Origin: Solirubrobacterales bacterium
Lineage (GTDB): Bacteria; Actinomycetota; Thermoleophilia; Solirubrobacterales; 70-9
Direction: 5' to 3'
DNA length: 64,000 bases
Assembly: GCA_036266075.1 (NCBI GenBank)
Contig: DATANV010000015.1
Span: 52,686-116,685 of the forward strand
Under the pieces are notes generated by a model. That model was not told the DNA's origin. It searched no databases and saw nothing but the letters and a program-made list of their open reading frames with translations. Within the stretch, counting starts at the first letter, position 1; each line of letters begins with the position of its first letter. The translations under genes were made by a program, and so were the position numbers. Positions 9,912 to 44,858 of this stretch are shown piece by piece.

Positions 9912-9936
9912 ACGCATCCGCTGCTACCCTTTACCT

Positions 9937-10873: not shown

Positions 10874-10916
10874 TCTCGCGTGTGAGGCGAGCGCTCTCCC
10901 ACTGAGCTACGCGCCC
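10845..10916 (-). tRNA. tRNA-Val (anticodon CAC)
   Basis: The reverse complement folds as a cloverleaf: GGGCGCG-TA-GCTC-AGTGGGA-GAGC-G-CTCGC-CTCACAC-GCGAG-AGGTC-GCTGG-TTCGAAC-CCAGC-CGCGCCC-A. CCA is not encoded. Confidence 0.92.
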
Positions 10917-23167: not shown

Positions 23168-24016
23168 ATGCTGCGCATGCCGGGGATCCGAACCAACGCC
23201 GCCGCAGAAGTTCTGGGGGTCAGCCCCAACACGCTGCGCAGCTGGGAGCGCCGTTACGGCTTCCCAGTGCCGAAGCGCACGCCCGGCAACCACCGCAACT
23301 ACGAGCTGGTCGAGCTGCAGACGCTGCGCGACGCCCTCGCCGAGACCGGCAACATCTCCTCGGCGATCGAGCTGGCGCGCCAGCGCCAGGCGGCACCGGC
23401 CAGCGGCGGCGGCCTGCTCTTCGCCTTCGAGGCCTTCGACGAGGACGCCGCCGACCGCGTCGTCGAGGAGAGCCTGGCGCTGCGTCCGCTGGAGCGCACG
23501 GTCGAGGAGATGCTGCTGCCGGCGGTCGACCGGCTCGCCGGCGCCCCCGACCGCGAGGCCGAGTTGGAGTTCGCCGCCCGCTGGGCGACCGGGTGGCTGC
23601 ACGGCGCCCGCCGCCTTGCCTCCACCGCCTCGCGCCCGGCCGGCATCCTGCTGCTCGACGCGAGCCGCGGCGCGGCCGCCGAGGAGGTCCACGCGCAGGC
23701 GCTCGACCTCGCTCTGCGCCGTGCCGGCTTCCGAGTCCTGATGCTTTCCGACGGGCTGGGGGAGGAGCGGATGGAGCGCGCGCTGCGCGCCCTCGACCCG
23801 ACCGCGATCGTCCTCTGCGGTCCCGGCGCCGACACCCCGACCGCAGTCCAGCTCGTCCGCAAGATCCGCGAGGCGGGCTTCGACGCGCCGCTCTTCGGCT
23901 TCCGCGCCAGCGGCCTGATCGGCGACGCGATTCCCAGCGCCGGCGAGCGTCCCAGCCAGGTCACCGGAATGCTCAACGCGGACCTCCGCCGCCGCGCCTC
24001 CCAGGCCTTCGCCTAG
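23168..24016 (+). CDS. MerR-family regulator with B12-binding-like C-terminal domain (LitR/CarH-like)
   Basis: N-terminal HTH AAEVLGVSPNTLRSWERRYGFPVPKRTPGNHRNY. C-terminal Rossmann-like segment ILLLDASRGAAAEEVHAQALDLALRRAGFRVLMLS...AIVLCG. Confidence 0.65.
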   Translation: MLRMPGIRTNAAAEVLGVSPNTLRSWERRYGFPVPKRTPGNHRNYELVELQTLRDALAETGNISSAIELARQRQAAPASGGGLLFAFEAFDEDAADRVVEESLALRPLERTVEEMLLPAVDRLAGAPDREAELEFAARWATGWLHGARRLASTASRPAGILLLDASRGAAAEEVHAQALDLALRRAGFRVLMLSDGLGEERMERALRALDPTAIVLCGPGADTPTAVQLVRKIREAGFDAPLFGFRASGLIGDAIPSAGERPSQVTGMLNADLRRRASQAFA

Positions 24017-24066
24017 CCGCCGCCTCTCCCCAAGCCGCCCGTGAGGCCTCGCCCCTTCGCGCCGAC

Positions 24067-24119
24067 GGGACGCGCCGGTAGTTAACCACCATATGGGTAG
24101 TTAACTACCGGCGCGTCCC
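24067..24119. repeat. 53-nt palindrome (20-bp perfect arms) in the MerR / PstS-like intergenic region
   Basis: GGGACGCGCCGGTAGTTAAC (24067-24086) / GTTAACTACCGGCGCGTCCC (24100-24119), with loop CACCATATGGGTA. Confidence 0.9.
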
Positions 24120-24157
24120 GCCCGTGGCGGGTCTCGGATGGCCGCTTTCGCTCCCAC

Positions 24158-24256
24158 GTAACCGTTCTGTCACCAAACGGCAACGATCCGGTGACACCGT
24201 GGATATGGCCATGTAACAGGCTCGTAGAAGTTCCGTGAACCGGCTTGACAGAGCCG
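24158..24256 (+). promoter_or_regulatory. Array of 11-nt phased direct repeats (GTnACn), PHO-box-like, with TTGACA at 24245-24250
   Basis: Consecutive 11-mers: GTAACCGTTCT, GTCACCAAACG, GCAACGATCCG, GTGACACCGTG, GATATGGCCAT, GTAACAGGCTC, GTAGAAGTTCC, GTGAACCGGCT, TGACAGAGCCG. The array ends ~50 nt upstream of the ATG at 24308. Confidence 0.55.
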
Positions 24257-24307: not shown

Positions 24308-26197
24308 ATGACTCGGATGAGCCATATTCACAGTGTGCCTCGAAGAGGTGCGCACGGCGGCATGGCGGGATTGGTCGCCATCGCGGTGGCCGCGCTGGCG
24401 GCGATCGTTATGGCGCCTGCCGCCCAGGCCGAATTCAGCCTCGCCAAATGCGAGGGCACCAACATCACCGGCGAAGGCGCCTCTTTCCAGAAAGAAGCGC
24501 AGGAACTCTTCAACGAACACTTCGGTCCCGACTATTGCTTCGGCACCGGCGGCGAAGGTCTCAGCGTCACCTACAAACCGGAAGGCAGCGGCGCCGGCAT
24601 CAAAGCGGCCCAGCTGCGCGAACGGCCGGCGCGCTTCGGGGCGACCGACGACCCGCCGACCCCGGCGCAGGTCGCGATCATGAACTCGGGCGGTAAAGAA
24701 GAAGCCGGCAAAGTCGTCGCCGACACCGACCCGAATGACGATGCCAAAGTGCACGTCGTGCCGATCGCCGTCGGTGCCGTCGCGCCGTTGGTGAATCTGC
24801 CCGAGGGCTGCAACGTCGAACTGCTCAAAGACGAATACCGCACGGTTTCGAAAGCGGAAATCGAAGCGACGCCGGCCAAGAAAGGCCTGCTGCGGATCCG
24901 CATGCCGAAGACGGTGTTCGAGAAAGTCTGGGGCTTCGAAGCGGGCTTCCAGACCTGGGACACGGCCTTCCCCGAACTGGCGGCCGACAGCGACTGCCAG
25001 AAACCGATCATTCGCGTCGTCCGCTTCGACCAGTCCGGCACGACGTTTGCCTTCAAGAGCTACCTGAACGCGATCAACCCGAGCCGCAACTGGCTCACCA
25101 CCTACGCGACCGGCGCCAACGAAACCAAGGAGTGGCCCGGCGCCGAATACGGCTCGGGGGGGCAGTGCGGCGGAACCGCGGCTCCCGGCAAAGGCGCCGA
25201 TGCCACCGACCACCTGACCAGCGGTTGCGCCAACGGCAACGGCAAACTCGTGCCGGTCCTGCAGGCGACCGACGGCTCTATCGGCTATTCGGACCTGGCG
25301 ACTGCCCGCTCCCTGGGCGTGCTCGTCAACCCGGCCGGCGTCGAAGCGCCGACGACCCCCTACTGGACGCAGGTGCAGAACGGCGAAGGCAACTTCACCG
25401 AGCCGACCTTCTCGGCCACCGGTTATCAGACCGCTGGCGCGCGCGGGTCGAACTGCAAATCGGTGACCTTCACCGGCATTCCGAGCGGTGAACACGCGAC
25501 GTTCGAAGATTGGTCCAAAGCCAGCGGCGTCAACTCGCCGCAGGGCTTCGGGATCTGCACCCTGACCTACGCCCTGCTGTTCGACGACAACGCTGCCGCC
25601 TACGGCGCCAGCGGTGCCGAGGAAGCCAAGGCCCGCACGGCTAAGGACTACTTCGCGAACGTCGTCGGCGTTGGCATGCAGGGTCAGTTGTTCGGCCGCG
25701 ACTACGCCGCGCTGCCCGAATCGATCCGCCAGATCGCCCAAACCGGCGTCAACGAAATCGGCTGGAACAAGGCCAACGAAAAAGGCAACGAACCGGAAGA
25801 AACGCCGAAAGGCGGGGAGGAAAAAACGACCCCGACGCCCCCGCCTCCGGTCGCACCGCCGAGCAACGACATCACCCTCGGCCGCACGACGGTCTCCTCG
25901 AAAACCGGTTCGGCGAGCCTCTCGGTGAACCTGCCGGCTGCCGGCAAGCTAGACGTGCTCGGCACGGCAAGAGTCGGCAAAAAGAAGATCAAAGTGGGTC
26001 ATCTCGTTCTCACCGCCGCTGGCCCGGGCAACTACAAGGTGACGCTGAAGCCGAACGGCGCTGCCAAGCAGGCCCTGAGAAAAGCGGGCAAGCTGGCGGT
26101 GACGCTGACGCTCACCTTCACCCCCGACGGTGGCGCGGCGAGCACCAAGACGCAGAGCGTGATGCTGAAGCTGGCCGTCAAGAAAGGCCACGGATAG
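24308..26197 (+). CDS. Secreted PstS-family (phosphate/anion-binding PBP) protein fused to a basic C-terminal module
   Basis: Signal peptide ...APAAQA. PstS-like motifs EGSGAGIKAAQ...FGATDDPP and FDQSGTTFAFKSYL. Pro/Glu linker, then ...ASLSVNLPAAGKLDVLG...GNYKVTLKPNGAAKQALRKAGKLAVTLTLTFTPDGG. Confidence 0.75.
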   Translation: MTRMSHIHSVPRRGAHGGMAGLVAIAVAALAAIVMAPAAQAEFSLAKCEGTNITGEGASFQKEAQELFNEHFGPDYCFGTGGEGLSVTYKPEGSGAGIKAAQLRERPARFGATDDPPTPAQVAIMNSGGKEEAGKVVADTDPNDDAKVHVVPIAVGAVAPLVNLPEGCNVELLKDEYRTVSKAEIEATPAKKGLLRIRMPKTVFEKVWGFEAGFQTWDTAFPELAADSDCQKPIIRVVRFDQSGTTFAFKSYLNAINPSRNWLTTYATGANETKEWPGAEYGSGGQCGGTAAPGKGADATDHLTSGCANGNGKLVPVLQATDGSIGYSDLATARSLGVLVNPAGVEAPTTPYWTQVQNGEGNFTEPTFSATGYQTAGARGSNCKSVTFTGIPSGEHATFEDWSKASGVNSPQGFGICTLTYALLFDDNAAAYGASGAEEAKARTAKDYFANVVGVGMQGQLFGRDYAALPESIRQIAQTGVNEIGWNKANEKGNEPEETPKGGEEKTTPTPPPPVAPPSNDITLGRTTVSSKTGSASLSVNLPAAGKLDVLGTARVGKKKIKVGHLVLTAAGPGNYKVTLKPNGAAKQALRKAGKLAVTLTLTFTPDGGAASTKTQSVMLKLAVKKGHG

Positions 26198-26198
26198 C

Positions 26199-28220
26199 GT
26201 GAGCAATAGCGCCGGAAGCAGTCGGCGCCCGGCGCTGAAGAAGCCCCAGGTGGACTTCCGCGACGTCGCCCGTAGCATGGGCGGCGTCGCGGCCTCCGCC
26301 GGGCGCTGGCTCGCACGGGACCCGATCAACACGGTCCTGATCGTCGCCTCGATCGGGTTGACGATCCTCTTCTTCACCCTGCTCGGCGACATCCAGCCGA
26401 GCTCCAGCGGCACCCGGGTGCCGCTCAGTCGCGTCGAAAAGCTCGCCAAGGAAAAGCAGATCGAACTGGCGACGCTCCTCGACCAGGACTCGCGGGTCGT
26501 GGTCGACACCAAGGAAGGCCTCGAACTCTACGCCGCCTACCCGAAGTCCGATGCGGAGACCTCCAATCTTCTGAAGCAGCTGACCAGCGGCGGTGCTGTG
26601 GTCGAGATCGACCAGCAGTCCGACAAGCCGTCGAAGCAGATCATGGTCCAGTTCCTGATCCCGATCCTGCTGTTGGTCTGCCTCTTCGTGCTCTTCACCC
26701 GCCTCGGTCAGGACGCGGGAGCGGGCGCCTTCGCGGGCTTCTCGAAATTCACCGGCAAGGGCCGCAAGCGCAAGGCTGGCGCCCCCGGGCGCACGACCTT
26801 CGAAAACGTCGCCGGCGCCGGCGAAGCGGTGGCCGAGCTGCGTGAGATCCGCGACTACCTGGCCGAACCGGGCAAATACGCGAAAGTCGGCGCCCGTGCG
26901 CCGAAGGGCGTGCTGCTGGTCGGCCCCCCTGGCACCGGCAAGACGTTGCTCGCCAAGGCGACCGCCGGCGAGGCCGACGCCGCGTTCTTCTCGCTTTCCG
27001 GCTCGGACTTCGTCGAGTCGCTGGTCGGCGTCGGCGCTGCCCGCGTCCGCGACCTCTTCGCCAAAGCCCGCAAGCAGGCGCCGGCGCTGGTCTTCATCGA
27101 CGAGCTCGACGCCGCCGGGCGAAAGCGCGGCGCCGGCGTCGGCCAGGGCAACGACGAGCGCGAGCAGACGCTGAACGCGCTCCTCGTCGAGATGGACGGC
27201 TTCGGCGGCGACGCCGGCATCGTCGTCCTTGCCGCCACCAATCGCCCGGATGTCCTCGATCCGGCGCTGCTGCGCCCCGGTCGCTTCGATCGCCAGGTGA
27301 CGGTCGACGTGCCCGACGTCCACGGCCGCCTCGACATCCTCGCCTTGCACTGCGGCAACCGGCCGCTGGCGCCGGGTACCTCGCTGGAGGAGATCGCCAA
27401 GCTGACCTCGGGCTTCAGCGGTGCCGAGCTGGCCAACGTGATCAACGAGGCGGCGCTGCTGACGGTGCGCGAAGGGCGGGTCGAGATGGACCAGCCGACG
27501 CTCGAGGAGGCGATCGACCGAGTCGTTGCCGGCCCGGCCCGTAAGAGCCACGTGCTGAGCGCCGAGGAGCGCTGGGTGATCGCGATCCACGAGTCGGCGC
27601 ACGCGGTTGTCACCCGCTCGATCGGCCAGAAGGTCTCGGCCCAGAAGCTCTCGATCGTCGCCCGCGGGCGCCAGCTCGGCACCGCCGCCCACATGCTGAC
27701 CGACCGCGACGCGGTCGTTATGCAAGAGCCCGACTTGCGCCGCCACCTGATCGCGATCGTCTCCGGCTTCGCCGCCGAGCTGCTCGAGTTCGGCGTTGTC
27801 TCCAGCGGTGTCCACGACGACCTGCATGCGGCCACCGGGTTGGCGCGGCAGATGGTCACCTCCTACGGCATGTCGCCGGCACTCGGCCCGGTGACGATTG
27901 GCGAGAAAGCCGGCGAGGTTTTCCTCGGCGCCTCGCTGCAGGAGCTGGGCTCGGTCGGCCCGGCGACGCTGGAGTTGATCGACCGCGAGGTCGAGCGCCT
28001 CGTCAAGGACTCGGTCGCGCAGGCGGAGGACATCCTGCGACGCAACTGGAACGCGGTGTATGAGACCGCCAACGCACTGGTCGAGCAGGAGACGCTTTCG
28101 GGCGTCGCCCTCGACGCCGTCCTCTCGACGGTGCAGCCGACGCTGCTCTCCTTTGCCCGGGAGGAGGACGGCGAGACCGGCGAAGGCGCCGAGAGGGAGG
28201 CGCAGGCCAAGCGTGAGTAG
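26199..28220 (+). CDS. ftsH: ATP-dependent zinc metalloprotease FtsH
   Basis: Two TM segments flank a periplasmic domain. Walker A GPPGTGKT, Walker B FIDELD, SRH region, zinc site HESAHAV. The GTG start is 1 nt after the upstream stop. Confidence 0.92.
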
Positions 28221-29841
28221 ATCGGCGACACTGGCGCTCGCGTCGGTCGCCGCCATCGTTCTTGCGGCATTGGTCGCCCCCGGCATGGCGTCGGGGGCGC
28301 TGATCTGGCGCCTGGAGCAGCCGCCTCCGCCGGCGGGAGTGCCGTTCAAGGTGCCTCTGGGGGCGCCGGGAGACCTCTCCTTCTGGGCTCCCAACAGGGG
28401 CCTGCTCAGCGTCGAAGGCAACAGCACGATCCCGCGCGGCCTCTTCAGCTGGAACGGTCAGAGCTGGCATCAGCTGGCGACCGTCTGCGGCGGGCCGGGA
28501 GACACGGCGCGGATCGCCTGGGCGGGCCCCGACGAGTTCTGGGTCCTCAGCGAACCGAGCCAGCCCCGGGCCGGCTCCGGCCTGGCTCTTTGCCGCTTCA
28601 AGGATGGCCAGGTGGTGGGCTCGTGGAGCACCCGGGTCGACGCCGCCGACCCATTCCGACAGATGCGCTCGGCCGCCTGCAACGGTGCAAACGACTGTTG
28701 GTTCGGCGGGGTCGGCTCCCAGGACGCCCTGGGCGAGCGGGTCGGCGCCTTTCACCTGCACTGGAACGGCAGCACGCTGGAAACCGTCTACGGGCCTCAG
28801 GGCCGGGCGGTCAGCGACATGGAGTTCCAGGCGGGCACGCTCTACGAGAGCACCTATGTCGGCAAGGCGGCCGAAGATCGCGTCGACCCGGTCGACCTCG
28901 CTGATCCGGAGCCGGTGCCGAGCCTTATCCACACCGTCGCCGGTCACAGCTTCGCGAACGATCCCTTCCTGCCGGCGCCCCACCCGGGCGTGCCCGAAGA
29001 CGGCACCGAGCTGCTGGCTCTCGACGGCGACGGCACCGACCTCTGGGCGGTTGGCGGCGGCGCTGCCTCGGGCCCTTCGGCGCCATCCGAAGGGGCGGTC
29101 GAACGCGCGCCCCTGGCCGCTCGCCTGGTCGCTGGCTCGTTCCAGGAGCTGAGCTTGAGCGGCGACGCCACCTTCGGGCCGACCGATCGCTTCGGTGACG
29201 TCGCCGCGATGCCCGGCAGCAGCGACGCGATGGTCACCGTCGTCCCCTACGACGAGCGGCGCAGCACCAACAGCAAGGCGATCGTCGCCAGCGTCGCCGC
29301 CGACGGGACCGTCTCGACGACAACGCTGCCCGCTTCGGGTGCCGGCCGCGGCAGCGCCGCCCGGATCGCCTGCCCGGCGCCGAACGACTGCTGGCTGGCG
29401 ACCTGGGCCGGTTGGCTCTTCCACTACGGCGATGGCACTCCGCAGCCGCTCGACACCGATCCCTTCTTCGAAGGCACGATCGAGTTCCGCCCCAACGAGG
29501 CGGCCGAACAGTTCATCCCCGACGTCCTGCCCGAAGACGACTCCCAGCTCTTCGCGCCGCCGCCGGTCGAACTCGAACAGGCGGCCGAATCGAGAACCCA
29601 CGTCAAGCGCCTGCCGCCGCTGCTGCGCAACGTGCATTCGCGACTGCGGGGCCTGACGTTGATCGTCACCTTCACGGTGACCCGCCGCGCCCGCGTCCAG
29701 CTGCTCGCCAAGCGCCGTGGCAAGACCGTGGCGCGGACGCCTCAGCGCACCTTCGCGCCTGGGCACCGGCGGCTGAGCCTGCATCTGAGTCGCGACCGCT
29801 ACCCGACTAACCTCGCCTTCCGCGTGAAGGCCCTCAAGTGA
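28213..29841 (+). CDS. Secreted protein with propeller-like (Ycf48/BNR-type) repeats and basic C-terminal module
   Basis: The GTG at 28213 overlaps the ftsH stop by 8 nt. Signal peptide [29 protein letters not shown]-terminus ...LTLIVTFTVTRRARVQLLAKRRGKTVA...GHRRLSLHLSRDR. Confidence 0.7.
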   Translation: MSRSATLALASVAAIVLAALVAPGMASGALIWRLEQPPPPAGVPFKVPLGAPGDLSFWAPNRGLLSVEGNSTIPRGLFSWNGQSWHQLATVCGGPGDTARIAWAGPDEFWVLSEPSQPRAGSGLALCRFKDGQVVGSWSTRVDAADPFRQMRSAACNGANDCWFGGVGSQDALGERVGAFHLHWNGSTLETVYGPQGRAVSDMEFQAGTLYESTYVGKAAEDRVDPVDLADPEPVPSLIHTVAGHSFANDPFLPAPHPGVPEDGTELLALDGDGTDLWAVGGGAASGPSAPSEGAVERAPLAARLVAGSFQELSLSGDATFGPTDRFGDVAAMPGSSDAMVTVVPYDERRSTNSKAIVASVAADGTVSTTTLPASGAGRGSAARIACPAPNDCWLATWAGWLFHYGDGTPQPLDTDPFFEGTIEFRPNEAAEQFIPDVLPEDDSQLFAPPPVELEQAAESRTHVKRLPPLLRNVHSRLRGLTLIVTFTVTRRARVQLLAKRRGKTVARTPQRTFAPGHRRLSLHLSRDRYPTNLAFRVKALK

Positions 29842-32800
29842 GCGGACCCGGGCAGGCCGGGCGCCTGATCGGCGCCGGGCTCGCCTTCCTGCTGGCAATC
29901 GCGCTCGCCCTGGCGACGGCCACCCAGGGCAGCGGTGCCGCCGCCCCCGGCGGCGTCGGTCCGCTGCCGCTGCTCGGCGTCGCCGATGCGCAGATGAGGC
30001 TGATGGGCACGGCGTCGGGGGGCGAGGCTTGGGGCTATCGGCAGCTGCCGCTCGCAGTCGGCGGGGTCGAAGCCGGCACGCGCCAAGTCCCCTTCGGCCC
30101 CCCGCAGGACAGCTCCGGCACGTCCCTGCAGCTCGCCTTCTTGCGCTACACGGAGGGCAACGGCTGGCGGGTCTTCGAGACGCCGGTCGACCGCAACGGC
30201 AACCCCTACCGGGGACCCGTCCCCAACCCGCTTTCGGCGCGGATCACGCCAAACGGGGGAGGGGTCCTGCTGGGCCGCGACGCGCACCGGCTGCCGAGCG
30301 ACCAGGTCGTCGTCCTCGATCACGACCCGGGCGGCTCGTGGCGGGCGCTGCCGACGCCGCCGTCCTCGGTGCTGTTGCCGGCCGAAGGCGAACGGCCGGC
30401 CGAGGCGCTCGCCGCCGATCACGGCTCGGGGGCCGTCGCGGCTGCCGCCTTCGACGAAGGCGGCCACACGGGGCTCTTCTTTGCCCCCCAGGAACGCTCG
30501 GTCGCCGATGCGGTGATCCATTTCGACGGCAGCGAATGGACTCGCGAGAAGGTCAAAGTGCCGGCGGGCTCCGAATCCGAATTCCATATCCTGGCGATCG
30601 CAGCCACCGGAGCCGGCAACGCTTGGGCGATCGCCGCGGCGGCCCCGATGCTCAAACGCTCCTTCGTCCTGCTGCAGCGCACCGCCGGCCCGGAAGGTCC
30701 CGAATGGGTCGAGCGCGGGATCGGCGCCGCGCGCTTCGCCGACGCCGACACACCGGAATTCGGGATCGAAGGTCTGGCGCCGATCGGGGGCGCCGCCCAA
30801 CCCCTGACCGTCACCCAGGACGGTGTCTGGATCGACCTCACGGCGAAGTTCGAAGGCGTCTCCAGCGACGCGACGGTCTACTACGACATCGGCGCCGGCG
30901 CGGTGATCGGCTCGTGGTGCGACGCGGACGCCTGCGACGAAGCCTTCGGGGCGAAGCTCTCGCGGCAGAGTGGCTATCGCAGCTTCGCCTGGCCCGGCTC
31001 GGGCTTCGGAACGCGGATCGTCACCAATCCGCTCGAACCTGGCGGCGGCGAAGAAAGCAACCGCGGCACCTACCTGCGGTTCGACGGTGGGGCATTCGCT
31101 CGGGTCCCCGGCGGCGGCGGCAACTTCCACGCGGGCGGGGCCTTCTCGAGCGTCGACAGCGGCTGGCTCGAGGGACCGGTCGAGATCTCCGCCAAGCGCG
31201 CGCCGGAAGCGCTGCGGCCCTGGCCGGTGACCCTGCGGGCGCCGCTCGCCGACGTCACCGGCGCCCCCGGGCAGCCGCCGGGGGCGCTCGGGTCGCAGGC
31301 GCTGGCGGTGGGCGCGAACGGCGCGGTCGCCCGCTACACGCCGGGGCGCGGCTGGCGGCGCGAGTACCTGACCACCGCCAGCGGCTCGGTCAGCAAGGCG
31401 ACGCTGCGCGGCGTCGCCTGGCCCGAACCGAATCACGCCTACGCCGTCGGCGACCTCGGCGCGATGTGGCAGTGGAACGCCGACGACGGCCTCTGGATCG
31501 CCGATCCCGGCGTGCCGATCGGCTTCGAAGGCAACCTGATGGACATCGCCTTCGATCCGGCCGACGCCAGCCGCGGCTACGCCGTCGGCAAGCACGGCGT
31601 CCTGTTGCGCTTCGAAAAGAGCTGGGAACCGCAGGCGCTGCCGCCGGGCTTCGACAGCGCCGATCTGACTTCGATCGCCTTCGCCGGCCGCGAGGCGATC
31701 GTCGCCGCCGGTGGCGATCTGCTGGTCAACGAGGGGGGCGTTTGGCAGGTCGATCCCTCCGCCCAGGCGTTGCTGGACAGCGTCCGCGCCGGCAATCCGA
31801 AGCTGCTTGCCGTCGCCGGCCTGCCCGACGGCGGAGCCGTCGCCGCAGGGCGCGACATCGTCATCGAGCGCGACGGCGGGCCGGGTTCGCCCTGGCGCTT
31901 TTCCAAGCAGCCGATCCTCGGCTCGACTGCGATTGCCGCCGCCGCGGTGCGGACCGACGCCGGCGTACGGGCGATCCTCTCCGTCGTGCCCCAGCTGGCC
32001 TACCCGCCGGCCGACGAACTGCCGCCCGAAGACCCCAACGTGCCGCCGCCGATCCTGCCGCCGTTCGCCCTGCCTGGTGACGGATACGTCCTGCGCGAGA
32101 CCTTCGACGGCTGGCAGGACGAGCAGCGCACCGCCTTCGCCGGCACCGGCTCGGACCGGCCGATCAAGAGCGACCCGACGACCGCCTTCCTGCTCGACTC
32201 GGCCGGCAACGGCTGGGCGGTAGGCGGCTGGAGCGGCGACGGCGACGCCAGCGGGCGCGGCTCCTCGGCCCGCGGTGGCGAAGGCGGCGCCCTGCGGGCC
32301 CGCGTGCGAACTGCGTCGATCGCCCGCTTTGGCGACGGTGCCGCCCCGCCGCCCGTCGAGCGCTCGGCGCCGGTGGCAGTGCCCGCCGGTCCAGCCCGCT
32401 TCGCCGTCGCCGGCAACGCTCAGTGCGAGCAGCCCTGCGCCGACCTGGCGCCCGAGGCTCTCGGGCCCGACCGCACGCTGGCTGTCGCCCTCGCCATGAT
32501 CAACGCGATGCGCGGCGGTGCCGGCCCGCGAGCCCTTCTCTACACCGGGAACCGCGTCGCGACCGGCCTCGACTTCGCCGACGGCGAACGCTACGCGGCC
32601 CTGCTGGGTGGGGTGCCGGGCCTGCCCGTCTTCCCGGCGCTGGGCTCCAGCGACGTCGGCGACGGCACTGGCAGCGACGCCTTCGCAGCTTCCTTTGCCG
32701 GCTTCCCGGCGCCGCTGGGCTCCGGCGCATCGCCACCGGGGATCTCCGTCGCAGGCATCCCCGGCGCCGCGCCAGGCCCTGGCGCCCGCACCCACTACGC

Positions 32801-34277
32801 CTTCGACAGCAGCGGCGACGGCGGCACCGTACGGATCGTCGTGATCGACAACTCGCGCGGCTCGCTGGCCGCCAGCGATCCCTTCCAGAACCCGTCCGAG
32901 GCACAGCTGCCCTGGCTCGAATCGGTGCTCGCCGATGCCCGAGCCAAGGGCATCCCGGTCGTCGTGATGGGCAACCGCAGCCTCAACTCCAGCTTCACGC
33001 CGAAGCTGAACGTGGCCAGCGACGCCGGCACTGTGGCGCGGGCACTGGTCGACGGCGGCGCCTCGGCCTACCTCTTCGATCGCCCGGAAGAGAACCGGGC
33101 GATGAGCATCCCGGCCGGTGGCTCGACGACGATCCCCAGCTGGGGCACGGGCACGCTCGGTTACCGCTCGCCGATCTCCGGCGCCGTCGGCCTCGAAGCC
33201 GCCGACTCGCTGTTCGGCGACAGCGGTTTCCTGTTGCTCGAAGTGAACGCCGCCCAGCGCGACCCCGCCAGCAACCGGGCGCCGGTAGGGGTGCGGCTGG
33301 TCCCGGTGATCCAGGACCTCTCGCTGGAAGCGATCGACGGCACCCTTCTGCACCGCTCGATCCCGGCGCTGTTCAGCGGCCTCGGCCGCCGGCCGCTCGG
33401 CGGCGACCGCTGGGGCGCCGCCGCTGCGGGCTCCTCGATCCCCAGCCCGGCCGGCGGCGACCCCTACACGCTCTTCCCGCCTGAGCCCTGCCTGGTCGCC
33501 GGCTGCGCCAACCGAGTCTCGCCGGAATACAGCTTCACCTCCTCGGATCCCGATATCGCCGACTTCGTCCGCCAGGACCCGAACTCGAACAACCTGCGCA
33601 AGCCCTTCCTCGACGCCAACGGCAAGGTCGCCACCGACAACTCCTCAGGCCTGCTCTGCCCGTTCAACGCCGGCACGACGACGGTCACCGTCAGCGCCGG
33701 CGGGCTCTCCTACTCCGAACAGGTGACTGTCCAGGGCGGCAGCGTGCAGCGCCCCTGCGGCACCCGGCCGCTGCGACCTGACCGCTTCGCGCGCAACGCG
33801 CCGGCTGCCGCGCCGCCGGCGCCCCCGCCGGCTCCCGCCCCCGCCGGCAGCCCGCCGGTCGAGTTCACGCCGCCGTCGCCTCCGCCCGCCTCGCCGGCGC
33901 CCCCGCCTCCGCCTAACCCAGTCCACGTCGTTCCGAACCCGCCCCTGGCGCCCGCCTTCTTGCCGGTCACCGCGGGCCTGATCGCCACCGTGCCGGCGGC
34001 GCTGTTGCCGCCGCCGCCGCCGGTAGTGCGGCCGCTGCCGCCAGGCGGCGCCCCGGCCCGCACCTACCAGGTCGAGGAACGCCGCGAAGAGGAGGCGGCG
34101 ACCGAGGAGTCGCAGGCCTTCTCACGGCACGAGCCCGGCGGCGAGGGCGCCGCCGTGCCGCCCTACCTGCCGGCGCTCGTCCTGCTGCTGGCACTCGGCG
34201 CCGCCTCGGTCCGCGGCGGCGGCGGCCGCCGCCGCGCGGTCGCAACAGCCAACGCTGCCTCTTTCCGTCGTCGCTGA
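29838..34277 (+). CDS. 1479-aa exported multidomain protein: propeller-like repeats, degenerate metallophosphoesterase-like domain, Big_2 Ig-like domain, Pro-rich stalk, C-terminal TM anchor
   Basis: GTGA overlap with the upstream stop. Signal peptide present. The metallophosphoesterase-like region FAVAGNAQ...LLYTGNRV...PALGSSD...HYAFD...VVIDNS...QLPWLE...VVVMGNRS has ligand positions substituted. Big_2-like SFTSSDPDIADF...NAGTTTVTVSAGG. Then PPAPPPAP... and PPYLPALVLLLALGAASVRGGGGRRR. Confidence 0.75.
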   Translation: MSGPGQAGRLIGAGLAFLLAIALALATATQGSGAAAPGGVGPLPLLGVADAQMRLMGTASGGEAWGYRQLPLAVGGVEAGTRQVPFGPPQDSSGTSLQLAFLRYTEGNGWRVFETPVDRNGNPYRGPVPNPLSARITPNGGGVLLGRDAHRLPSDQVVVLDHDPGGSWRALPTPPSSVLLPAEGERPAEALAADHGSGAVAAAAFDEGGHTGLFFAPQERSVADAVIHFDGSEWTREKVKVPAGSESEFHILAIAATGAGNAWAIAAAAPMLKRSFVLLQRTAGPEGPEWVERGIGAARFADADTPEFGIEGLAPIGGAAQPLTVTQDGVWIDLTAKFEGVSSDATVYYDIGAGAVIGSWCDADACDEAFGAKLSRQSGYRSFAWPGSGFGTRIVTNPLEPGGGEESNRGTYLRFDGGAFARVPGGGGNFHAGGAFSSVDSGWLEGPVEISAKRAPEALRPWPVTLRAPLADVTGAPGQPPGALGSQALAVGANGAVARYTPGRGWRREYLTTASGSVSKATLRGVAWPEPNHAYAVGDLGAMWQWNADDGLWIADPGVPIGFEGNLMDIAFDPADASRGYAVGKHGVLLRFEKSWEPQALPPGFDSADLTSIAFAGREAIVAAGGDLLVNEGGVWQVDPSAQALLDSVRAGNPKLLAVAGLPDGGAVAAGRDIVIERDGGPGSPWRFSKQPILGSTAIAAAAVRTDAGVRAILSVVPQLAYPPADELPPEDPNVPPPILPPFALPGDGYVLRETFDGWQDEQRTAFAGTGSDRPIKSDPTTAFLLDSAGNGWAVGGWSGDGDASGRGSSARGGEGGALRARVRTASIARFGDGAAPPPVERSAPVAVPAGPARFAVAGNAQCEQPCADLAPEALGPDRTLAVALAMINAMRGGAGPRALLYTGNRVATGLDFADGERYAALLGGVPGLPVFPALGSSDVGDGTGSDAFAASFAGFPAPLGSGASPPGISVAGIPGAAPGPGARTHYAFDSSGDGGTVRIVVIDNSRGSLAASDPFQNPSEAQLPWLESVLADARAKGIPVVVMGNRSLNSSFTPKLNVASDAGTVARALVDGGASAYLFDRPEENRAMSIPAGGSTTIPSWGTGTLGYRSPISGAVGLEAADSLFGDSGFLLLEVNAAQRDPASNRAPVGVRLVPVIQDLSLEAIDGTLLHRSIPALFSGLGRRPLGGDRWGAAAAGSSIPSPAGGDPYTLFPPEPCLVAGCANRVSPEYSFTSSDPDIADFVRQDPNSNNLRKPFLDANGKVATDNSSGLLCPFNAGTTTVTVSAGGLSYSEQVTVQGGSVQRPCGTRPLRPDRFARNAPAAAPPAPPPAPAPAGSPPVEFTPPSPPPASPAPPPPPNPVHVVPNPPLAPAFLPVTAGLIATVPAALLPPPPPVVRPLPPGGAPARTYQVEERREEEAATEESQAFSRHEPGGEGAAVPPYLPALVLLLALGAASVRGGGGRRRAVATANAASFRRR

Positions 34278-34284
34278 CGACGCG

Positions 34285-34740
34285 GTGAGCAAATCGCCGC
34301 GAAATCTTAGTGAGGGAGGCTTCGCGCTAGATCTGCGCTTGACCGTGCGGGCAAGGAGTACAAGAGACGTCGACATCGAGTGGCGTGCCAACGAGGCCGA
34401 GTTGCTCGATGCACTGCTCGACGCGACGAGTCACGATGCAGGCGACTTCTTCGTTTATCTCATTGAGAGGGTCGGCGCACCCGAGGACCTCCTGGGCGGC
34501 AGTCACCGCTTCCGGGTTTCGGCATCCTTGGCAGGACGTCCCTTCGAGATGTTCCTGCTCGATGTCGGCTTCCGAGCCGATGACGCGCTTGCCACCGAGA
34601 TCCTTCGCACCGAAGATCTCCTCAGCTTTGCGGGAATCGAGCCAGTCGAGGTCGACGCGATCTTGGCTGGTGATGTCCCAGCCGGGAGATGGGATTCCGA
34701 CGGCCGACGCTGGGTGCTCAGCGAATCCGCTCGGGGCTGA
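34285..34740 (+). pseudogene. Truncated AbiEii/AbiGii-family nucleotidyltransferase toxin fragment
   Basis: EGGFALDLRL...RSTRDVDIEW resembles the GGTAL...R.T.DiD motif. It is only 151 aa, lacks the usual N- and C-terminal parts, has lower GC, has no AbiEi partner, and overlaps the convergent gene's 3' end. Confidence 0.5.
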
Positions 34741-35065
34741 AGCGGTAGCCGATGCCGAAGTGGGTGTGGATGTAGCGCCAGTCGGGGGCGACGCTCTCCA
34801 GCTTGCTGCGCACGCGGCGTACGAGGACGTCCACCGAGCGGTCGCGGCGGCGCATCTCGCCGCCCCACATCAGCTCGTAGATCTCGGGCCGCTGGACGAC
34901 GCTGTCTAGACGCTCGGCGAGCAGGAAGAAGAGCTGGAACTCGCGCACGGTGAGGCCAGCGCGGCGCCCCTCGACCAGCACCTGGAGCTCCGTCGGGCGG
35001 ATCTCGACGTTGGCGATCCTCTGCCTGCCCTCGGGCGACGCCTGTGCCGATGGTGGAACGGCCAT
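34718..35065 (-). CDS. Stand-alone OmpR/PhoB-type winged-helix DNA-binding protein (no receiver domain)
   Basis: LTVREFQLFFLLAERLDSVVQRPEIYELMWGGEMRRRDRSVDVLVRRVRSKLE...IHTHFGIGYRF is a Trans_reg_C pattern. Total length is 115 aa. Confidence 0.8.
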   Translation of the reverse strand: MAVPPSAQASPEGRQRIANVEIRPTELQVLVEGRRAGLTVREFQLFFLLAERLDSVVQRPEIYELMWGGEMRRRDRSVDVLVRRVRSKLESVAPDWRYIHTHFGIGYRFSPERIR

Positions 35066-35146: not shown

Positions 35147-37165
35147 CTAATGCCGGGCGAAAATCACGGCAACGGAGCCGTGGAGCCGCTTTCCGCCTCC
35201 CGCGAAGCCGACCTTGGCCCGGGCATGGAGTTCCGTGCCGCCGGCGACCTGCGCCCGCGCCTTGCCGTGCAGGCGCAGGACCAGACGCGCTTTGCCTTTG
35301 CGCCGCGGTCGGCTCCCGTCCTGCGCCAGCTTGCGTCCCTTCTTGCGGACGGTGGCCGTGAGGCGCCCGGCACCCGGCACCGAGACGGTCAGCACCACGG
35401 TCCCGTTGGCTGCCGAGCGCGCGCGCACCGACAGGCGGCGGCGGCCGAATTCTTCGATCGAGGCCGCGCCGCCGCGGCGTGCCGACGGCGGTGGGCCTTG
35501 CGCTGGCGGTTCGCTCTCGCGGGTGACGACGAAAGCATCGGGCCGGTCGTTGGCATCGCCGACGAACATGTTGGCTGCGAAGGACGAGAAGGCGATTAGC
35601 CCGGCATCGGAGGACAGCGTCATGTGCGGGTCGACGTCGCCGTTCGCGTCGCCGTCTTCAACCGAGTGGGTGACGCGTTCGACGGTATGTTCTTCGAGGT
35701 CGATCGCGTAGAGGTCGCGGACGTCGGCGATCGAGCGCGGTTCGCCGACGAGCTGCAGGACCGGCAGGGTGAAGGTCGTGCGCACGGTGGCCAGCGCCAG
35801 GTGGCGGCCATCCGCGGTCATCGCCAGTCCCTCGATCGAGGCGGCCAGCGCCGGGCTGGTCGAGGTGCCGTCGCGGGTCAGCTCGGTGGTCGCCGCCTTG
35901 CGGCTGAGGCCGGGCTTCATGCTGGTCAGGTAGAGGTCGAGGCCCGAGCCGGTGGTCACGTCCGGGCGCGGGCCGGAGCCGGTCAGGAAGGCGACGGTAT
36001 TGCCGTCGCCGCTCAGCACCGGCAGCTGCGAGGCGATGCTGGCCGGCAGCGACTCCTGGTCGGTCAGCGGCCCGTAGCAGGGGCCCGTCGAGGTCTGGTT
36101 GAAGCTCGTCGTCATCCCCGGGTTGGCCGCTTCCATCGCCGCACAGGTCGGGTCGTCGGGGTCGGCGATGCCGGTTATGCGCCGCGTCGGCGCCCCCGGT
36201 CCCGCCGCGATGCGGCGCCAGAGGTAGTAGTCCTCGCTCGCCGAGGTCGGCTCGCCGCGCAGGAAGCGCGTCTGAGCGCTTGCGTTGTCGCCGGTCCAGG
36301 CGACCGTCGTGCCGTCGGCGCTGATCGCCCCGCCGAGCGCGCCACCCGCCGGCTGTTGGGTCATCTGGCCCGTTTCGGGGTCGCGGCTGGCGGTGACGAG
36401 CGTCGTCCGCTGGGTCGCCAGGTCGCGGACGAAGAGCTGGCCGGCGGGAACGTCGGTCGTGGCCTCGGCCGGCAGGTCGGTGGGGGCGTCGGTGCGGAAG
36501 ACGACTCGGTTCCCGTCGGCGCTGATCGCCCCGCCTCGCGCGACCTCGGCGCCCGGATTGCTCCCGGGCAGCGAGACCGTTGGAGGCCCGTAGCTCGCCG
36601 GCGCTTCGCTGCCGTCGCGCGCCGAGACGAGGCGGTACGCGCACTGGCCGCCGCCGCTGCAGGCGCCGCCAGGGGGCAGCGGCAGGTTCATGTCGCGCAC
36701 GTAGGCGTCAACGTTTTCGTTGCCGTCGGCCGGGACCAGTTGCTGGGCGGTGGAGAAGGCGACGTAGCGACCGTCGCCGCTGACCGAGGGATTCGCCGCG
36801 CCGCGCCGTAGGAAGGCGTTGGTGCCTTCTTCGAAGAGGTTGCCGTCGGCGACCTTCTGTAACGCTCGAGTCCCCAGGTCGAAGCGGAAGACTCCGCCCG
36901 CGCGGTAACGGCCGGCCGGGTCGGCGTCCTCGTCGGCGAAGAAGTTGCGCGCTCGGGTCTGGAAGACGACGTAGCGCCCGTCGGCTGAGATCGCCGCAAA
37001 GCTCGTCGCGTCATCGCCCTCTTCGAGGCGGTTGTAGTCGGCGGATACCAGGAAGGCGCCGGGAACGGCGTCGAAACCGTTGTCGTAGAAGGCCGCCGCG
37101 GTCGGCGGGGTGAGGGCGCTGAGCAGGACGGCAAGCGCCAGGCCGGCCTTGCGGCGGCGCCTCAC
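35147..37165 (-). CDS. Secreted PD40/TolB-like beta-propeller repeat protein with basic C-terminal module
   Basis: Signal peptide MRRRRKAGLALAVLLSALTPPTAAA. Repeats ISADGRYVVF, VSGDGRYVAF, ISADGNRVVF, ISADGTTVAW, LSGDGNTVAF, MTADGRHLAL. C-terminus VVLTVSVPGAGRLTATV...GKARLVLRLHGKARAQV. The GTGA start overlaps the upstream stop. Confidence 0.75.
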   Translation of the reverse strand: MRRRRKAGLALAVLLSALTPPTAAAFYDNGFDAVPGAFLVSADYNRLEEGDDATSFAAISADGRYVVFQTRARNFFADEDADPAGRYRAGGVFRFDLGTRALQKVADGNLFEEGTNAFLRRGAANPSVSGDGRYVAFSTAQQLVPADGNENVDAYVRDMNLPLPPGGACSGGGQCAYRLVSARDGSEAPASYGPPTVSLPGSNPGAEVARGGAISADGNRVVFRTDAPTDLPAEATTDVPAGQLFVRDLATQRTTLVTASRDPETGQMTQQPAGGALGGAISADGTTVAWTGDNASAQTRFLRGEPTSASEDYYLWRRIAAGPGAPTRRITGIADPDDPTCAAMEAANPGMTTSFNQTSTGPCYGPLTDQESLPASIASQLPVLSGDGNTVAFLTGSGPRPDVTTGSGLDLYLTSMKPGLSRKAATTELTRDGTSTSPALAASIEGLAMTADGRHLALATVRTTFTLPVLQLVGEPRSIADVRDLYAIDLEEHTVERVTHSVEDGDANGDVDPHMTLSSDAGLIAFSSFAANMFVGDANDRPDAFVVTRESEPPAQGPPPSARRGGAASIEEFGRRRLSVRARSAANGTVVLTVSVPGAGRLTATVRKKGRKLAQDGSRPRRKGKARLVLRLHGKARAQVAGGTELHARAKVGFAGGGKRLHGSVAVIFARH

Positions 37166-39159
37166 CCGACCCGCACCTTGCGCCTCAGCGTTGCCGTGTT
37201 GCCGGCCCGGTCTTTCGCCTTGACGACGATCGTGTAGAGGCCGGGCTTGGCGTAGGAGTGGTGGCGCGCGACCGCGTTGGGCCCTTTGGCCTTGCCCCGC
37301 CCGCGCCGCCGCGACGCGGCGGCGCGGTGTGGCGCAGACCCCGAGGCACTGGCACCGCGGTCGCCGAAGGAGATCTTCACTCCACCCCGCTTGAAGCCCG
37401 AGCTTGCGCGGCGGGCGCCGTCGAGGACCCGGATAGCGACCCGGCTGCCGCGGCGACGCAGCCGCACCCGCGGCGCCCGGCGGTCGATCAGCAAGGCCTG
37501 CTCACGGCTACCGGTTTCCTGCCTCGCGTCGTCGATCGCGAAGACCTGCAGGCGGTGCCGCCCTTCGCCGGCCTTGCCGCTGGAGAAGACGGTGTGCAGC
37601 TTCCTGGTCGGCTTGCTCACCGGCTGGTCATCGATGCTGACCGAGTACCTCAGCCCGCCGATCGCGTTGGCCGCCGCTTCCCAGGAGACTCGCAGCTCCT
37701 TCTTGCGCTGCCAGCCTTCCGGCGCTTCGACCAGCATCGGCTCGGGTGGTGCGTCGATCGTCGCCGCGGCGATCTGCGCCGCGGCACCGCTTCCTTGCTG
37801 CCAGGCGACGATCGCGTCGCCGAGGCCCGAGCCGGCCAGGGCAAGTCCGCCGACCGTGCCGCCGACCGGGGTGCTGAGCGGGGCCGATTCGCTGCGACCG
37901 TCGGCCGCGACTTCGCGCGCCGCGACGGCGCCGCTGCCACCGCGCTGCTCCTGCCAGGCGATCGCCGCGGCACCGCTCTCGGCGACGTCGAGCTGCGGTT
38001 CGCCGGCGATCGCGCTGCCGCCGTCGTCGATTCGCGCCGTCGGCCCGATCGCGGCGTTGTCGCCGCTCGTCCAGAGCGTGGCGGCGCCGCCGGCAAAAGC
38101 AGTGCCGAAGCCTCCTTCGGGGTCGACGGCGACGCTTGGAACGCCGAGGCCGCCCCGTTCGCCACCGTCGGCGAGACGCGGGCCGAGGAAGGCGGCGGCC
38201 CCTTCCGCGAAGGCGTCGGGGATCTCGTTGACGAATGCCCGCGGACCGCCGATCTTTCCCGCCTGCCCGGGGAGCTGGCGCAGCGCCACCGCCGCCTGGC
38301 CGAAGCCGGCGACGTCGAGCGAGAAGGCGTCGGCGGCGCCGCGCAAGGGGACTCCTTCCCAGCTGGATGGGCTGACCAGCAGCGGCACGCCGAAGGTCCC
38401 GCCGAAGACCCGCCGGGCCCAGACCCGGTTGACGAATTCATCGTCGGGCTCGCGCCAGGCGACGAGCGCGTTGCCGTTGACGTCGACCCCGATCTTCGGC
38501 CCGGCGGCGGCGGTCGGCACCGGCATCGGGATCGCCGGGTTGCGGTCGAGGGAATTGCCGAGGACCGACCAGAGGCGGTCTTTGTAGCGGGCGACGCGCA
38601 CGTCGATGCCCAGGTAGCCGGGGGGGTTCGCCGTGCTGTTGTCGGTGATCACCAGATAGGTCAGATACGCCTGGCCGCCGGCGTTCATCGCCAGGTCGGG
38701 GAAGCTGGCGGTCGCTTCACCGACGTTGAGGTCGACCGGAACCGGCGCCTCGAACCCGGTTGCGCCGGGGTCGAGCGTCGCCGAGAACATGCGGTCGTTG
38801 CCGGCGCCGAACTCCTGCACCCAGGTGAGGAGCAGGCGACCGCCGTCGCCGGCCGCTATCCGCGCCCAGCTCGAGTCGAATTTCTGGCCAATGTCGACCC
38901 GCTGCGGTGCGCTCCAGCCGGCGCCGAAGCGGGCGACGAAGACGTGGTTGCGGCCGCCTTCCTTGCGCAGGTAGACGAGGCCGCCGGTCCCGTCTTCTGC
39001 CATCGCCGCGTCTTCGATCGCCACCACGTCACCGCTTGGCCCGTCCACCATGTGGACCGGGGAGATCGCCGCCGCGGCACGCGATGGGGCGACGAGGCAC
39101 GCCACCACTAGCAAAGCCGTCAGGAGCGGCGGCAAGCGCAGCGGTACGCGGTCGCGCAT
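37162..39159 (-). CDS. Secreted repeat protein with C-terminal PKD-like Ig domain
   Basis: The ATG at 39159 gives MRDRVPLRLPPLLTALLVVACLVAPSRAAAA. Recurrent ...A(L/I)VAW(R/Q)E... strands. C-terminus HHSYAKPGLYTIVVKAKDRAGN (PKD signature). Confidence 0.7.
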   Translation of the reverse strand: MRDRVPLRLPPLLTALLVVACLVAPSRAAAAISPVHMVDGPSGDVVAIEDAAMAEDGTGGLVYLRKEGGRNHVFVARFGAGWSAPQRVDIGQKFDSSWARIAAGDGGRLLLTWVQEFGAGNDRMFSATLDPGATGFEAPVPVDLNVGEATASFPDLAMNAGGQAYLTYLVITDNSTANPPGYLGIDVRVARYKDRLWSVLGNSLDRNPAIPMPVPTAAAGPKIGVDVNGNALVAWREPDDEFVNRVWARRVFGGTFGVPLLVSPSSWEGVPLRGAADAFSLDVAGFGQAAVALRQLPGQAGKIGGPRAFVNEIPDAFAEGAAAFLGPRLADGGERGGLGVPSVAVDPEGGFGTAFAGGAATLWTSGDNAAIGPTARIDDGGSAIAGEPQLDVAESGAAAIAWQEQRGGSGAVAAREVAADGRSESAPLSTPVGGTVGGLALAGSGLGDAIVAWQQGSGAAAQIAAATIDAPPEPMLVEAPEGWQRKKELRVSWEAAANAIGGLRYSVSIDDQPVSKPTRKLHTVFSSGKAGEGRHRLQVFAIDDARQETGSREQALLIDRRAPRVRLRRRGSRVAIRVLDGARRASSGFKRGGVKISFGDRGASASGSAPHRAAASRRRGRGKAKGPNAVARHHSYAKPGLYTIVVKAKDRAGNTATLRRKVRVG

Positions 39160-39249
39160 TGGCAGAAGCTTGCTCGCCGCCGGCGCGAAAGATGTGACCA
39201 AGGAGATACCAAGTGGTTACGCGCGCGGCCACGCCTGCCGTGCGGCTGC

Positions 39250-39293
39250 GTTACCAGTTCTTATCCGGACAGTCACGTCGCGTTCACCTCCCT
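39250..39293 (+). promoter_or_regulatory. Four 11-nt phased PHO-box-like direct repeats in the divergent region between pstS and the 39159<-37162 operon
   Basis: GTTACCAGTTC, TTATCCGGACA, GTCACGTCGCG, TTCACCTCCCT. The last unit contains the exact GTTCACC core (39282-39288). The array ends 70 nt upstream of the pstS ATG. Confidence 0.6.
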
Positions 39294-39362
39294 GCCGCTG
39301 GCCGACTCGACACTTGCTTCGCTGCCCACTGTCCCGAACCCGTCACCAGGAGTGACCATCAG

Positions 39363-41173: not shown

Positions 41174-41175
41174 CC

Positions 41176-44532: not shown

Positions 44533-44858
44533 GCAGCGACCTCGAGAGGCGCCGCGACCGGCTCGCGCGCGAGCTGGTCGACCTGCAGTGGGATCTTGGC
44601 GGCATCGCCTACGAGATGGCGATCCGCGATCACTTCCGGCTCGACGTGCTGACCCGCCGGGCGGCGAAGCTGCAGCAGGTCGAGGCCGAGCTGAGCGAGG
44701 TCGAGCGGATGCTGAGGCTCGACCAGGCCGGCGCCGCCGGCGCCTGCGGCAACTGCGGCGCGCTCTACGCCCAGGGTGCGGCCTTCTGCTGGCAGTGCGG
44801 CAAGGACCTGATGCCGAGTGCCGCTGCTGCCCTGGGTGCGACGGCGGTCGGCCCGTGA
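44529..44858 (+). CDS. Coiled-coil protein with C-terminal zinc ribbon
   Basis: GTGA overlap. Contains CGNCGALYAQGAAFCWQCG. Confidence 0.65.
   Translation: MSSDLERRRDRLARELVDLQWDLGGIAYEMAIRDHFRLDVLTRRAAKLQQVEAELSEVERMLRLDQAGAAGACGNCGALYAQGAAFCWQCGKDLMPSAAAALGATAVGP

Follow-up and report, generated by a model that had tools for sequence, protein, structure and literature searches.

In many bacteria, FtsH is the one membrane AAA+ protease that is essential, and the locus described here raises the question of why its gene should be packed together with genes for large exported proteins. The locus lies in a stretch of 64,000 nucleotides (nt) from a Solirubrobacterales bacterium (Actinomycetota, Thermoleophilia; assembly GCA_036266075.1, contig DATANV010000015.1, positions 52,686-116,685; G+C content ~70%). 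We refer to this whole stretch as the window and count all positions within it unless a related locus is named. Judging from the sequences, the ftsH locus of the Solirubrobacterales appears to join an orthologous FtsH, catalytically complete by its motifs, to lineage-specific exported proteins whose genes are co-transcribed and translationally coupled with it. With a probability of roughly 0.4, we propose that these exported proteins make up a single surface assembly, with two of them (termed Giant and X) as its anchors, and that the co-expressed FtsH services it in assembly, quality control or turnover. An earlier note on this DNA, made from the sequence alone, knew of no system with such an architecture, and our literature searches likewise turned up no description of this cluster or architecture.

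The core of the locus consists of four plus-strand genes, which encode a paralogue of the phosphate-binding protein PstS (629 residues; 24308-26197), FtsH (673 residues; 26199-28220), the product of open reading frame 3 (ORF3; 542 residues; 28213-29841) and Giant (1479 residues; 29838-34277). The TAG stop codon of the first gene (26195-26197) is separated by one base from the GTG start codon of ftsH (26199), the GTG of ORF3 (28213) overlaps the ftsH TAG (28218-28220) by 8 nt, and the GTG of Giant (29838) overlaps the ORF3 TGA (29839-29841) by 4 nt. The packing and the three junctions are thereby exactly as the earlier note had read them. Purine runs resembling Shine-Dalgarno sequences (AAGAAAGG, GGGAGG and GAAGG) precede the start codons, and a scan between the four genes gave no convincing terminator and no sigma-70-like promoter (no match to the sigma-70 consensus). 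The NCBI gene calls for the source metagenome-assembled genome (MAG) give the same 673-residue FtsH (100% identical to P0001) and the same 542-residue ORF3 (P0121) with the same start codons, and the N-terminus of ORF3 is conserved in the alignments of its orthologues. All three partners of FtsH begin with the signal peptides that had been claimed for them, as judged by N-terminal hydrophobic, signal-like segments in hydropathy plots.

To see whether this arrangement is shared, a genome scan with the window FtsH was used, which yielded 80 species-level loci, complete chromosomes among them, with orthologues of 65-90% identity. The window proteins were placed in the related loci by tblastn, and linkage was counted in the 62 species-level loci with at least 19 kb of sequence. 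The co-occurrence of the neighbouring genes in relatives, a point raised by the earlier note, proved strongly positive: ORF3 and Giant are found within 10 kb of ftsH in 57 of the 62 loci. Moreover, the cluster exceeds what was first described. Within the same distance are the gene for a PD40 protein (672 residues; 35147-37165, minus strand), a probable secreted propeller of the TolB/tricorn type (53 loci), that for u679 (679 residues; 37162-39201, minus strand), a secreted repeat protein with a C-terminal PKD domain and a basic stretch (52 loci), and that for X (264 residues; 46036-46830, plus strand), an N-terminally anchored protein with a Cys-containing ectodomain (48 loci). An orphan DNA-binding protein of the OmpR type lies near the cluster in 56/62 loci, and the true pstSCAB operon adjoins it, adjacent or divergent, in 44/62. 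All four propeller genes (ORF3, Giant, PD40 and u679) lie within 10 kb of ftsH in 50 loci and none of them in three (L054, L055 and L076), where X directly follows ftsH.

The tight junctions are conserved as well, the 8-nt overlap of ftsH with ORF3 and the 4-nt overlap of ORF3 with Giant being found again in about 40 species. Of 49 loci, 39 show an overlap of 1, 4 or 8 nt between ftsH and ORF3, in most of them one of 8 nt (also the median), and overlaps of 1 or 4 nt join ORF3 and Giant in 46 of 57 loci and u679 and PD40 in 34 of 47 (median 4 nt for both); in the window, the latter two genes overlap by 4 nt. An overlap of 4 nt was further observed between Giant and X in 27 loci and between ftsH and X in 15. 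The claim that all junctions are tightly packed thus stands for ftsH, ORF3 and Giant, whereas the junction between the PstS paralogue and ftsH is tight only in the window and some relatives. On the strand of ftsH, ORF3 comes next in 42 loci and X in 18, while the remaining 2 have no such gene, so that the partner changes, yet a gene for an exported protein usually follows ftsH (60/62).

Linkage to ftsH persists across at least four arrangements. In the window (arrangement A), the genes for the PstS paralogue, FtsH, ORF3 and Giant are followed by an inverted block of the OmpR-type gene, PD40 and u679, then by pstSCAB and, farther on, X, a cluster member displaced in this genome. Most relatives show the order u679, PD40, PstS paralogue, ftsH, ORF3, Giant and X, followed by the OmpR-type gene on the other strand and then pstS (arrangement B); arrangement C resembles it but has pstS divergent upstream. 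In the Solirubrobacteraceae, whose FtsH is ~67% identical, pstS is divergent from ftsH, X, u679, PD40, ORF3 and Giant (arrangement D). In L081, a metagenomic contig of more distant relationship, ftsH points away from a series of PstS paralogue, PKD protein, u679, PD40, an ORF3::Giant fusion and X. A further candidate lineage (L082) was dismissed as an error-ridden contig of the common arrangement, and L083 was too short to inform the comparison. On the evidence of gene order and overlaps, the locus is a conserved, co-oriented and, as it would seem, translationally coupled gene set around ftsH, and this conservation of the neighbourhood makes a functional association of FtsH with the exported proteins a reasonable inference.

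The two proteins encoded directly after ftsH belong to families without annotation. ORF3 matched no family in Pfam or NCBIfam, its relatives are all annotated as hypothetical, and an exhaustive search of 1.84 billion representatives returned a small family of 481 proteins at E<=1e-3. Its AlphaFold2 (AF2) model, of moderate confidence (mean predicted local distance difference test score, pLDDT, of 58), shows an all-beta propeller at residues 64-406 and a confident, basic C-terminal beta-sandwich at residues 481-540. Foldseek related the model to generic 7-bladed propellers (prolyl oligopeptidase, E 6e-7; GH74; sortilin), which agrees, at that level of confidence, with the earlier description of this partner as a secreted propeller protein. 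Giant consists of a signal peptide, two tandem beta-propellers (~53-360 and 470-720 in the AF2 model of residues 1-1200), an alpha/beta domain, a Cys-rich Ig-like region and a C-terminus formed by a Pro-rich stretch, a conserved acidic juxtamembrane segment, a transmembrane helix (residues 1438-1456) and a basic tail; the stalk and anchor assigned to one of the partners are therefore those of Giant. Its best Foldseek matches are tandem-propeller proteins (GH74 at 2.6e-11, the sensor BT4663 and PorZ). Single-sequence searches of the PDB with ORF3 and with Giant gave no useful match. The only sequence-level PDB and Pfam matches of Giant are to the Ycf48 family: PF14870 (PSII_BNR) aligns over profile positions 230-302 of 303 with 26.3 bits, under the gathering score of 27 bits, and a partial signal below threshold recurs in 12 of 16 Giant orthologues. 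Among close relatives, ORF3 is 71-82% and Giant 68-81% identical, and by this measure both are unusually conserved for surface proteins.

The alpha/beta domain of Giant (residues 850-1175) shows, when the AF2 model is inspected by eye, a beta-alpha-beta order reminiscent of metallophosphoesterases. We considered a calcineurin-like metallophosphoesterase, but the window protein and nine orthologues gave no Pfam match at E<=10, and the expected metal ligands (DxH, GDxxDR, GNH[ED] and GH) are replaced. Given the absence of a family match at this threshold, we do not claim this identity for Giant.

A further link between ORF3 and Giant comes from gene fusion. Two proteins of a divergent lineage, P0414 (2055 residues) and P0418 (2062 residues), are in-frame fusions of ORF3 and Giant lacking the second signal peptide, and P0418 is encoded in the cluster next to ftsH. 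The fusion in L081 (10001-16189 of that locus) belongs to this cluster too, ~9 kb from an ftsH of opposite orientation. By the Rosetta-stone argument, such fusions are evidence of a joint action of ORF3 and Giant. Another apparent fusion (P0302 in L021) looks like a frameshift near the end of ORF3 and keeps the signal peptide of Giant, and was set aside as a probable assembly error.

FtsH itself proved intact, as had been stated. It reaches 635.3 bits against the equivalog cut-off of 600 of TIGR01241, which it thus passes narrowly, and contains the Pfam domains AAA, AAA_lid_3 and Peptidase_M41 together with a weak FtsH_ext match at residues 45-133. Two hydrophobic transmembrane segments (45-63 and 148-166, by hydropathy) flank a small ectodomain. 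Walker A (GPPGTGKT), Walker B, the second region of homology (SRH) and the HExxH motif (HESAH) are present, and the Walker and SRH motifs and the zinc site HE[SA][AS]H are conserved across a set of 75 orthologues. The pore-1 loop deviates: residues 271-279 read FVESLVGVG, with Leu replacing the usual Phe, so that the loop is SLVG and not MFVG or LFVG. This loop lacks the aromatic Phe-Val-Gly signature in all 75 Solirubrobacterales orthologues, whereas the best PDB match, the FtsH chain 7tdo_A, has FVELFVGVG.

Could such an FtsH be no more than a housekeeping neighbour? Each of the 80 species-level loci has a single copy, whose conservation (80-90% identity) equals that of recR and ybaB of these loci; the protein passes the equivalog cut-off, and ftsH followed by X is retained in the three loci without nearby propeller genes. 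These observations fit a protein that behaves as the lineage's orthologous, main FtsH; the best 120 matches listed in the protein searches are all orthologues. The same observations also agree with an explanation that we consider possible, if somewhat unlikely, namely that a single housekeeping ftsH hitch-hikes on the transcript of an unrelated surface-protein operon and that the coupling ensures expression only. The opposite orientation of ftsH in L081 and the synteny of the housekeeping flank (signal recognition particle (SRP) RNA, dnaX, ybaB and recR) point the same way. Against it speaks that the linkage outlasts several internal rearrangements, and that the gene at the ftsH stop codon switches from ORF3 to X and yet encodes an exported protein in all but two loci. 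Furthermore, order-wide overlaps of 4-8 nt between essential housekeeping genes and unrelated accessory genes are rare. We give preference to a surface assembly serviced by FtsH, and turn to its remaining components.

The PstS-like protein is, by profile and motif comparison, a divergent PstS paralogue with insertions and an added tail. It comprises a signal peptide, a phosphate-binding-protein fold with large insertions, a Pro-rich linker and a basic beta-rich tail, matches PBP_like_2 in Pfam (E 8.6e-12) and reaches 70 bits with TIGR00975, failing the equivalog cut-off of 205 bits. All phosphate-ligand motifs (GxSF, GSGxG, FGxxD and RxDxSGT) are kept, and the invariant columns S59/F60, S94, D114, R239 and S243-G244-T245 align to the PstS structures 8ods and 7xg7. 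Its gene is not part of a pstCAB operon; pstC, pstA and pstB instead follow another phosphate-binding-protein gene (39363-40175), and arrangement D lacks the paralogue altogether.

The tails of the PstS paralogue, ORF3, PD40 and u679 are extremely basic (pI 11-12) and sit on acidic bodies (pI 4.5-5.0). According to the earlier note, the PstS-like and propeller partners end in the same module. Both tails are indeed beta-rich and basic (pI 11.1 and 12.0), but hhalign gives a probability of 0.4% for their relatedness, i.e. no detectable homology; the tail of the PstS paralogue is instead homologous to that of the PD40 protein (probability 95%, E 1.7e-8). The PD40 protein itself shows one PD40 repeat (E 1e-6), with a faint Tricorn_N match in the L081 orthologue, and in most relatives its gene shares the strand of ftsH and immediately precedes that of the PstS paralogue. 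A profile of u679 matches the PKD domains of collagenase ColH (E 3.9e-7). No family was found for X in Pfam, NCBIfam or PDB profiles, and a likeness to DUF1566/FGE-like lectin folds noticed by eye was unsupported.

Two regulatory elements border the PstS paralogue. Upstream of it, in a spacer that measures ~140 nt between PD40 and the paralogue, lies a conserved promoter or operator element (CGTAGAAGTTCCGTGAACCGGCTTGACAGAGCC; 24223-24255, plus strand) with a TTGACA at 24245-24250. Of 42 orthologous loci, 35 carry its 8-mer CTTGACAG and 34 its 8-mer GTAGAAGT upstream of the paralogue. The derived motif GT[AT]GAA-N5-GT[GA]AA has 45 matches in ~1.7 Mb, 39 of them upstream of the PstS paralogue, and is thus gene-specific. 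Downstream of it, a GC-rich hairpin precedes ftsH in about half of the relatives (23 loci: L003, at 9855-9979 of that locus, L008, L009, L013 and 19 others); it is absent from the window. The spacer there is mostly 100-125 nt long, and the stem of 13-15 base pairs (GCGGCGCCCGGGCTC-loop-GAGCCCGGGCGCCGC; -40 to -50 kcal/mol) shows compensatory changes in 7 of 15 pairs across 19 species and is not followed by a U-tract. Rather than a full terminator, it is more probably a structure that attenuates transcription or stabilises the mRNA and would thereby set the ratio of PstS paralogue to FtsH. As the hairpin covaries in about half of the relatives, the junction between the PstS paralogue and ftsH is not a coupling point.

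The true pstS-pstC-pstA-pstB operon (39363-43037, plus strand) is divergent from u679 and was identified by PBP_like_2, BPD_transp_1 and ABC_tran matches, its pstS reaching 135 bits with TIGR02136. The divergent intergenic region of u679 and pstS contains, shortly before pstS, the two best PHO-box-like matches of the window (39271-39287 and 39352-39368; two mismatches each); the 11-bp-spaced direct repeat of GTTCAC is the actinobacterial type of PHO box. Downstream of pstB, four overlapping genes (43034-46830) encode a250 (lipoprotein-like), b249 (zinc ribbon and transmembrane segment), c483 (transmembrane) and X, and a250 also follows pstB in most Solirubrobacteraceae loci. The orphan protein of the OmpR/PhoB type (115 residues; 34718-35065, minus strand) is a winged-helix DNA-binding protein without a receiver domain (Trans_reg_C, E 7e-19), and in NCBIfam it aligns with response regulators over their C-terminal part only.

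This setting suggests a second alternative, in which the PstS paralogue, ligand-binding propellers and a degenerate phosphatase-like domain of Giant would form a Pho-regulated assembly for phosphate capture or sensing together with pstSCAB, FtsH being incidental or a turnover regulator only. We regard it as unlikely. The invariant phosphate-binding motifs, the neighbouring pstSCAB and OmpR/PhoB-type gene, the direct repeats at 39271-39287 and the strand order of the Giant domain all argue for it, and the motifs and pstSCAB keep the phosphate regulation envisaged in the earlier note as a circumstantial suggestion. The promoter does not follow suit, however: the motif upstream of the PstS paralogue is gene-specific, and its likeness to the PHO-box repeat is weak, amounting to one match with three mismatches on the opposite strand. 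Across the whole window, PHO-box-like repeats are not enriched either (22 against a shuffled expectation of 32), and the two matches near pstS alone stand out. The absence of the PstS paralogue from arrangement D and the lack of a detectable phosphatase family in Giant at E<=10 over ten orthologues weaken this explanation further, and ORF3 and Giant are conserved far beyond typical nutrient-scavenging surface proteins.

That the locus holds a dedicated second FtsH for an envelope assembly, as the earlier note had suggested, with the canonical ftsH elsewhere, e.g. by tilS-hpt, is very unlikely: the invariant SLVG loop in place of an aromatic FVG, a TIGR01241 score barely over the cut-off and the atypical context are set against housekeeping-level conservation, the absence of any genome occurring twice among the 80 best loci, a window without a second copy (the 81 related loci were not searched for one) and no second same-chromosome FtsH match above 82% identity, a threshold uninformative for distant paralogues.

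We thus return to the surface assembly serviced by FtsH. Whereas the gene order, overlaps, conservation, folds, fusion and phosphate motifs were observed, we infer the contacts between its proteins and the role of FtsH as follows. Giant would be held in the membrane by its C-terminal transmembrane helix, the Pro-rich stalk lifting its globular part through the wall, and ORF3 would bind Giant. The PstS paralogue, PD40 and u679 would be kept at the surface via their very basic C-terminal modules, which may bind anionic wall polymers or the conserved acidic juxtamembrane segment of Giant. FtsH, made from the same message, would act on the membrane-anchored Giant and X as a protease for assembly or for quality control and turnover, much as FtsH does at membrane complexes elsewhere; the extracytoplasmic proteins would be its clients or modulators. 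Phosphate is probably bound by the PstS paralogue, and this would tie the assembly to the neighbouring pst system.

Several points weigh against this proposal. The wider region is syntenic too, with dnaX-ybaB-recR upstream and pst and sdh-like genes downstream, so that part of the linkage could simply reflect slow rearrangement of an ancestral gene order in this lineage. Co-transcription is not universal, as shown by the opposite strand of ftsH in L081, and in about half of the relatives the gene of the PstS paralogue is set off from ftsH by the hairpin, which is stable and covaries. Furthermore, the globular part of Giant, on its Pro-rich stalk of ~100 residues, is probably far from the small FtsH ectodomain of 85 residues, and the structure models are of moderate confidence.

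In a bolder version, which we find doubtful, FtsH would be the membrane engine of a new trans-envelope assembly: X and the anchor of Giant would dock on the hexamer, ORF3 would cap Giant, in line with the natural fusion, the basic-tailed propellers and the PstS paralogue would hang on, and the Leu pore loop would be adapted to these clients. If true, FtsH would have adaptors or partners of a new class, drawn from families without known relatives.

The flanks of the cluster add several observations. Upstream, Pfam, NCBIfam and Rfam identify the large bacterial SRP RNA (13497-13761, plus strand; 160 bits in Rfam), followed by dnaX, ybaB and recR, a GGDEF protein and a MerR-family regulator (23168-24016) directly upstream of the cluster; a tRNA gene lies at 10845-10916 on the minus strand. 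The first 216 residues of the MerR regulator match CarH with 70 bits, well below cut-off, and arrangements A and B both keep the gene ahead of the cluster. CarH is a light- and B12-dependent repressor. Just 3' of this gene, a near-perfect 25-nt inverted repeat (24066-24120; 96% complementary, 5-nt loop, two copies of GTTAAC) could be a terminator or an operator. In the cluster and its surroundings, the Rfam scan gave no match. The place that X takes in relatives, after Giant and before the OmpR-type gene, is filled by 440 nt of lower G+C content (34278-34717; 62%) without similarity to the related loci and with an open minus-strand frame of ~128 codons; this stretch may be a replacement or insertion particular to the window.

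The soil and environmental metagenome collections searched are rich in Solirubrobacterales genomes, mostly uncultured MAGs. An order-wide, coupled set of undescribed exported propellers around ftsH is a testable candidate for a new FtsH partner system, and places at least four unannotated families (ORF3, Giant, X and the u679 propeller part) in one genomic context. Even with FtsH incidental, the cluster would still define a surface assembly that this lineage has conserved and that includes a phosphate-binding component beside pstSCAB.

How does the locus compare to known systems? In Firmicutes and most Actinobacteria, ftsH lies in the context tilS-hpt-ftsH(-folE/folP). The FtsH described here is the same complete enzyme, with two transmembrane segments, AAA and M41 domains and intact motifs, but its neighbours are pstSCAB and exported propellers, and its pore loop has Leu for Phe; none of the 38 window open reading frames scanned against Pfam is tilS, hpt or a fol gene. 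The sole sequence-level hint for Giant, the sub-threshold match of ~70-80 residues, leads to Ycf48. In cyanobacteria and chloroplasts, Ycf48/HCF136 is a lumenal 7-bladed propeller that acts on photosystem II, a complex turned over by FtsH. Giant, in contrast, is a multi-domain anchored protein, no photosystem genes were seen in the window or related loci, and Ycf48 is not known to be encoded beside ftsH. By fold, the N-terminal 720 residues of Giant come closest to GH74 xyloglucanases, the Bacteroides hybrid two-component sensor BT4663 and PorZ of the type IX secretion system, all of which are extracytoplasmic ligand-binding double propellers. Identity is ~10% and the TM-scores are low, as the latter come from a multi-domain model of moderate confidence; Giant lacks GH74 and sensor-kinase domains and has extra domains, a stalk and a transmembrane anchor instead.

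The closest functional analogy is FtsH-HflKC. In E. coli, the FtsH hexamer associates with HflK and HflC, membrane-anchored and mostly extracytoplasmic partners that modulate substrate access. Few extracytoplasmic partners of FtsH are known (HflKC and prohibitin-like proteins), and hflKC is not known to be translationally coupled to ftsH. The partners proposed here would differ in kind, being beta-propellers and a phosphate-binding-protein paralogue, and no cluster protein matched the SPFH/Band 7 domain. In topology, X with its N-terminal anchor and ectodomain and Giant with its C-terminal anchor would be partners comparable to HflK and HflC.

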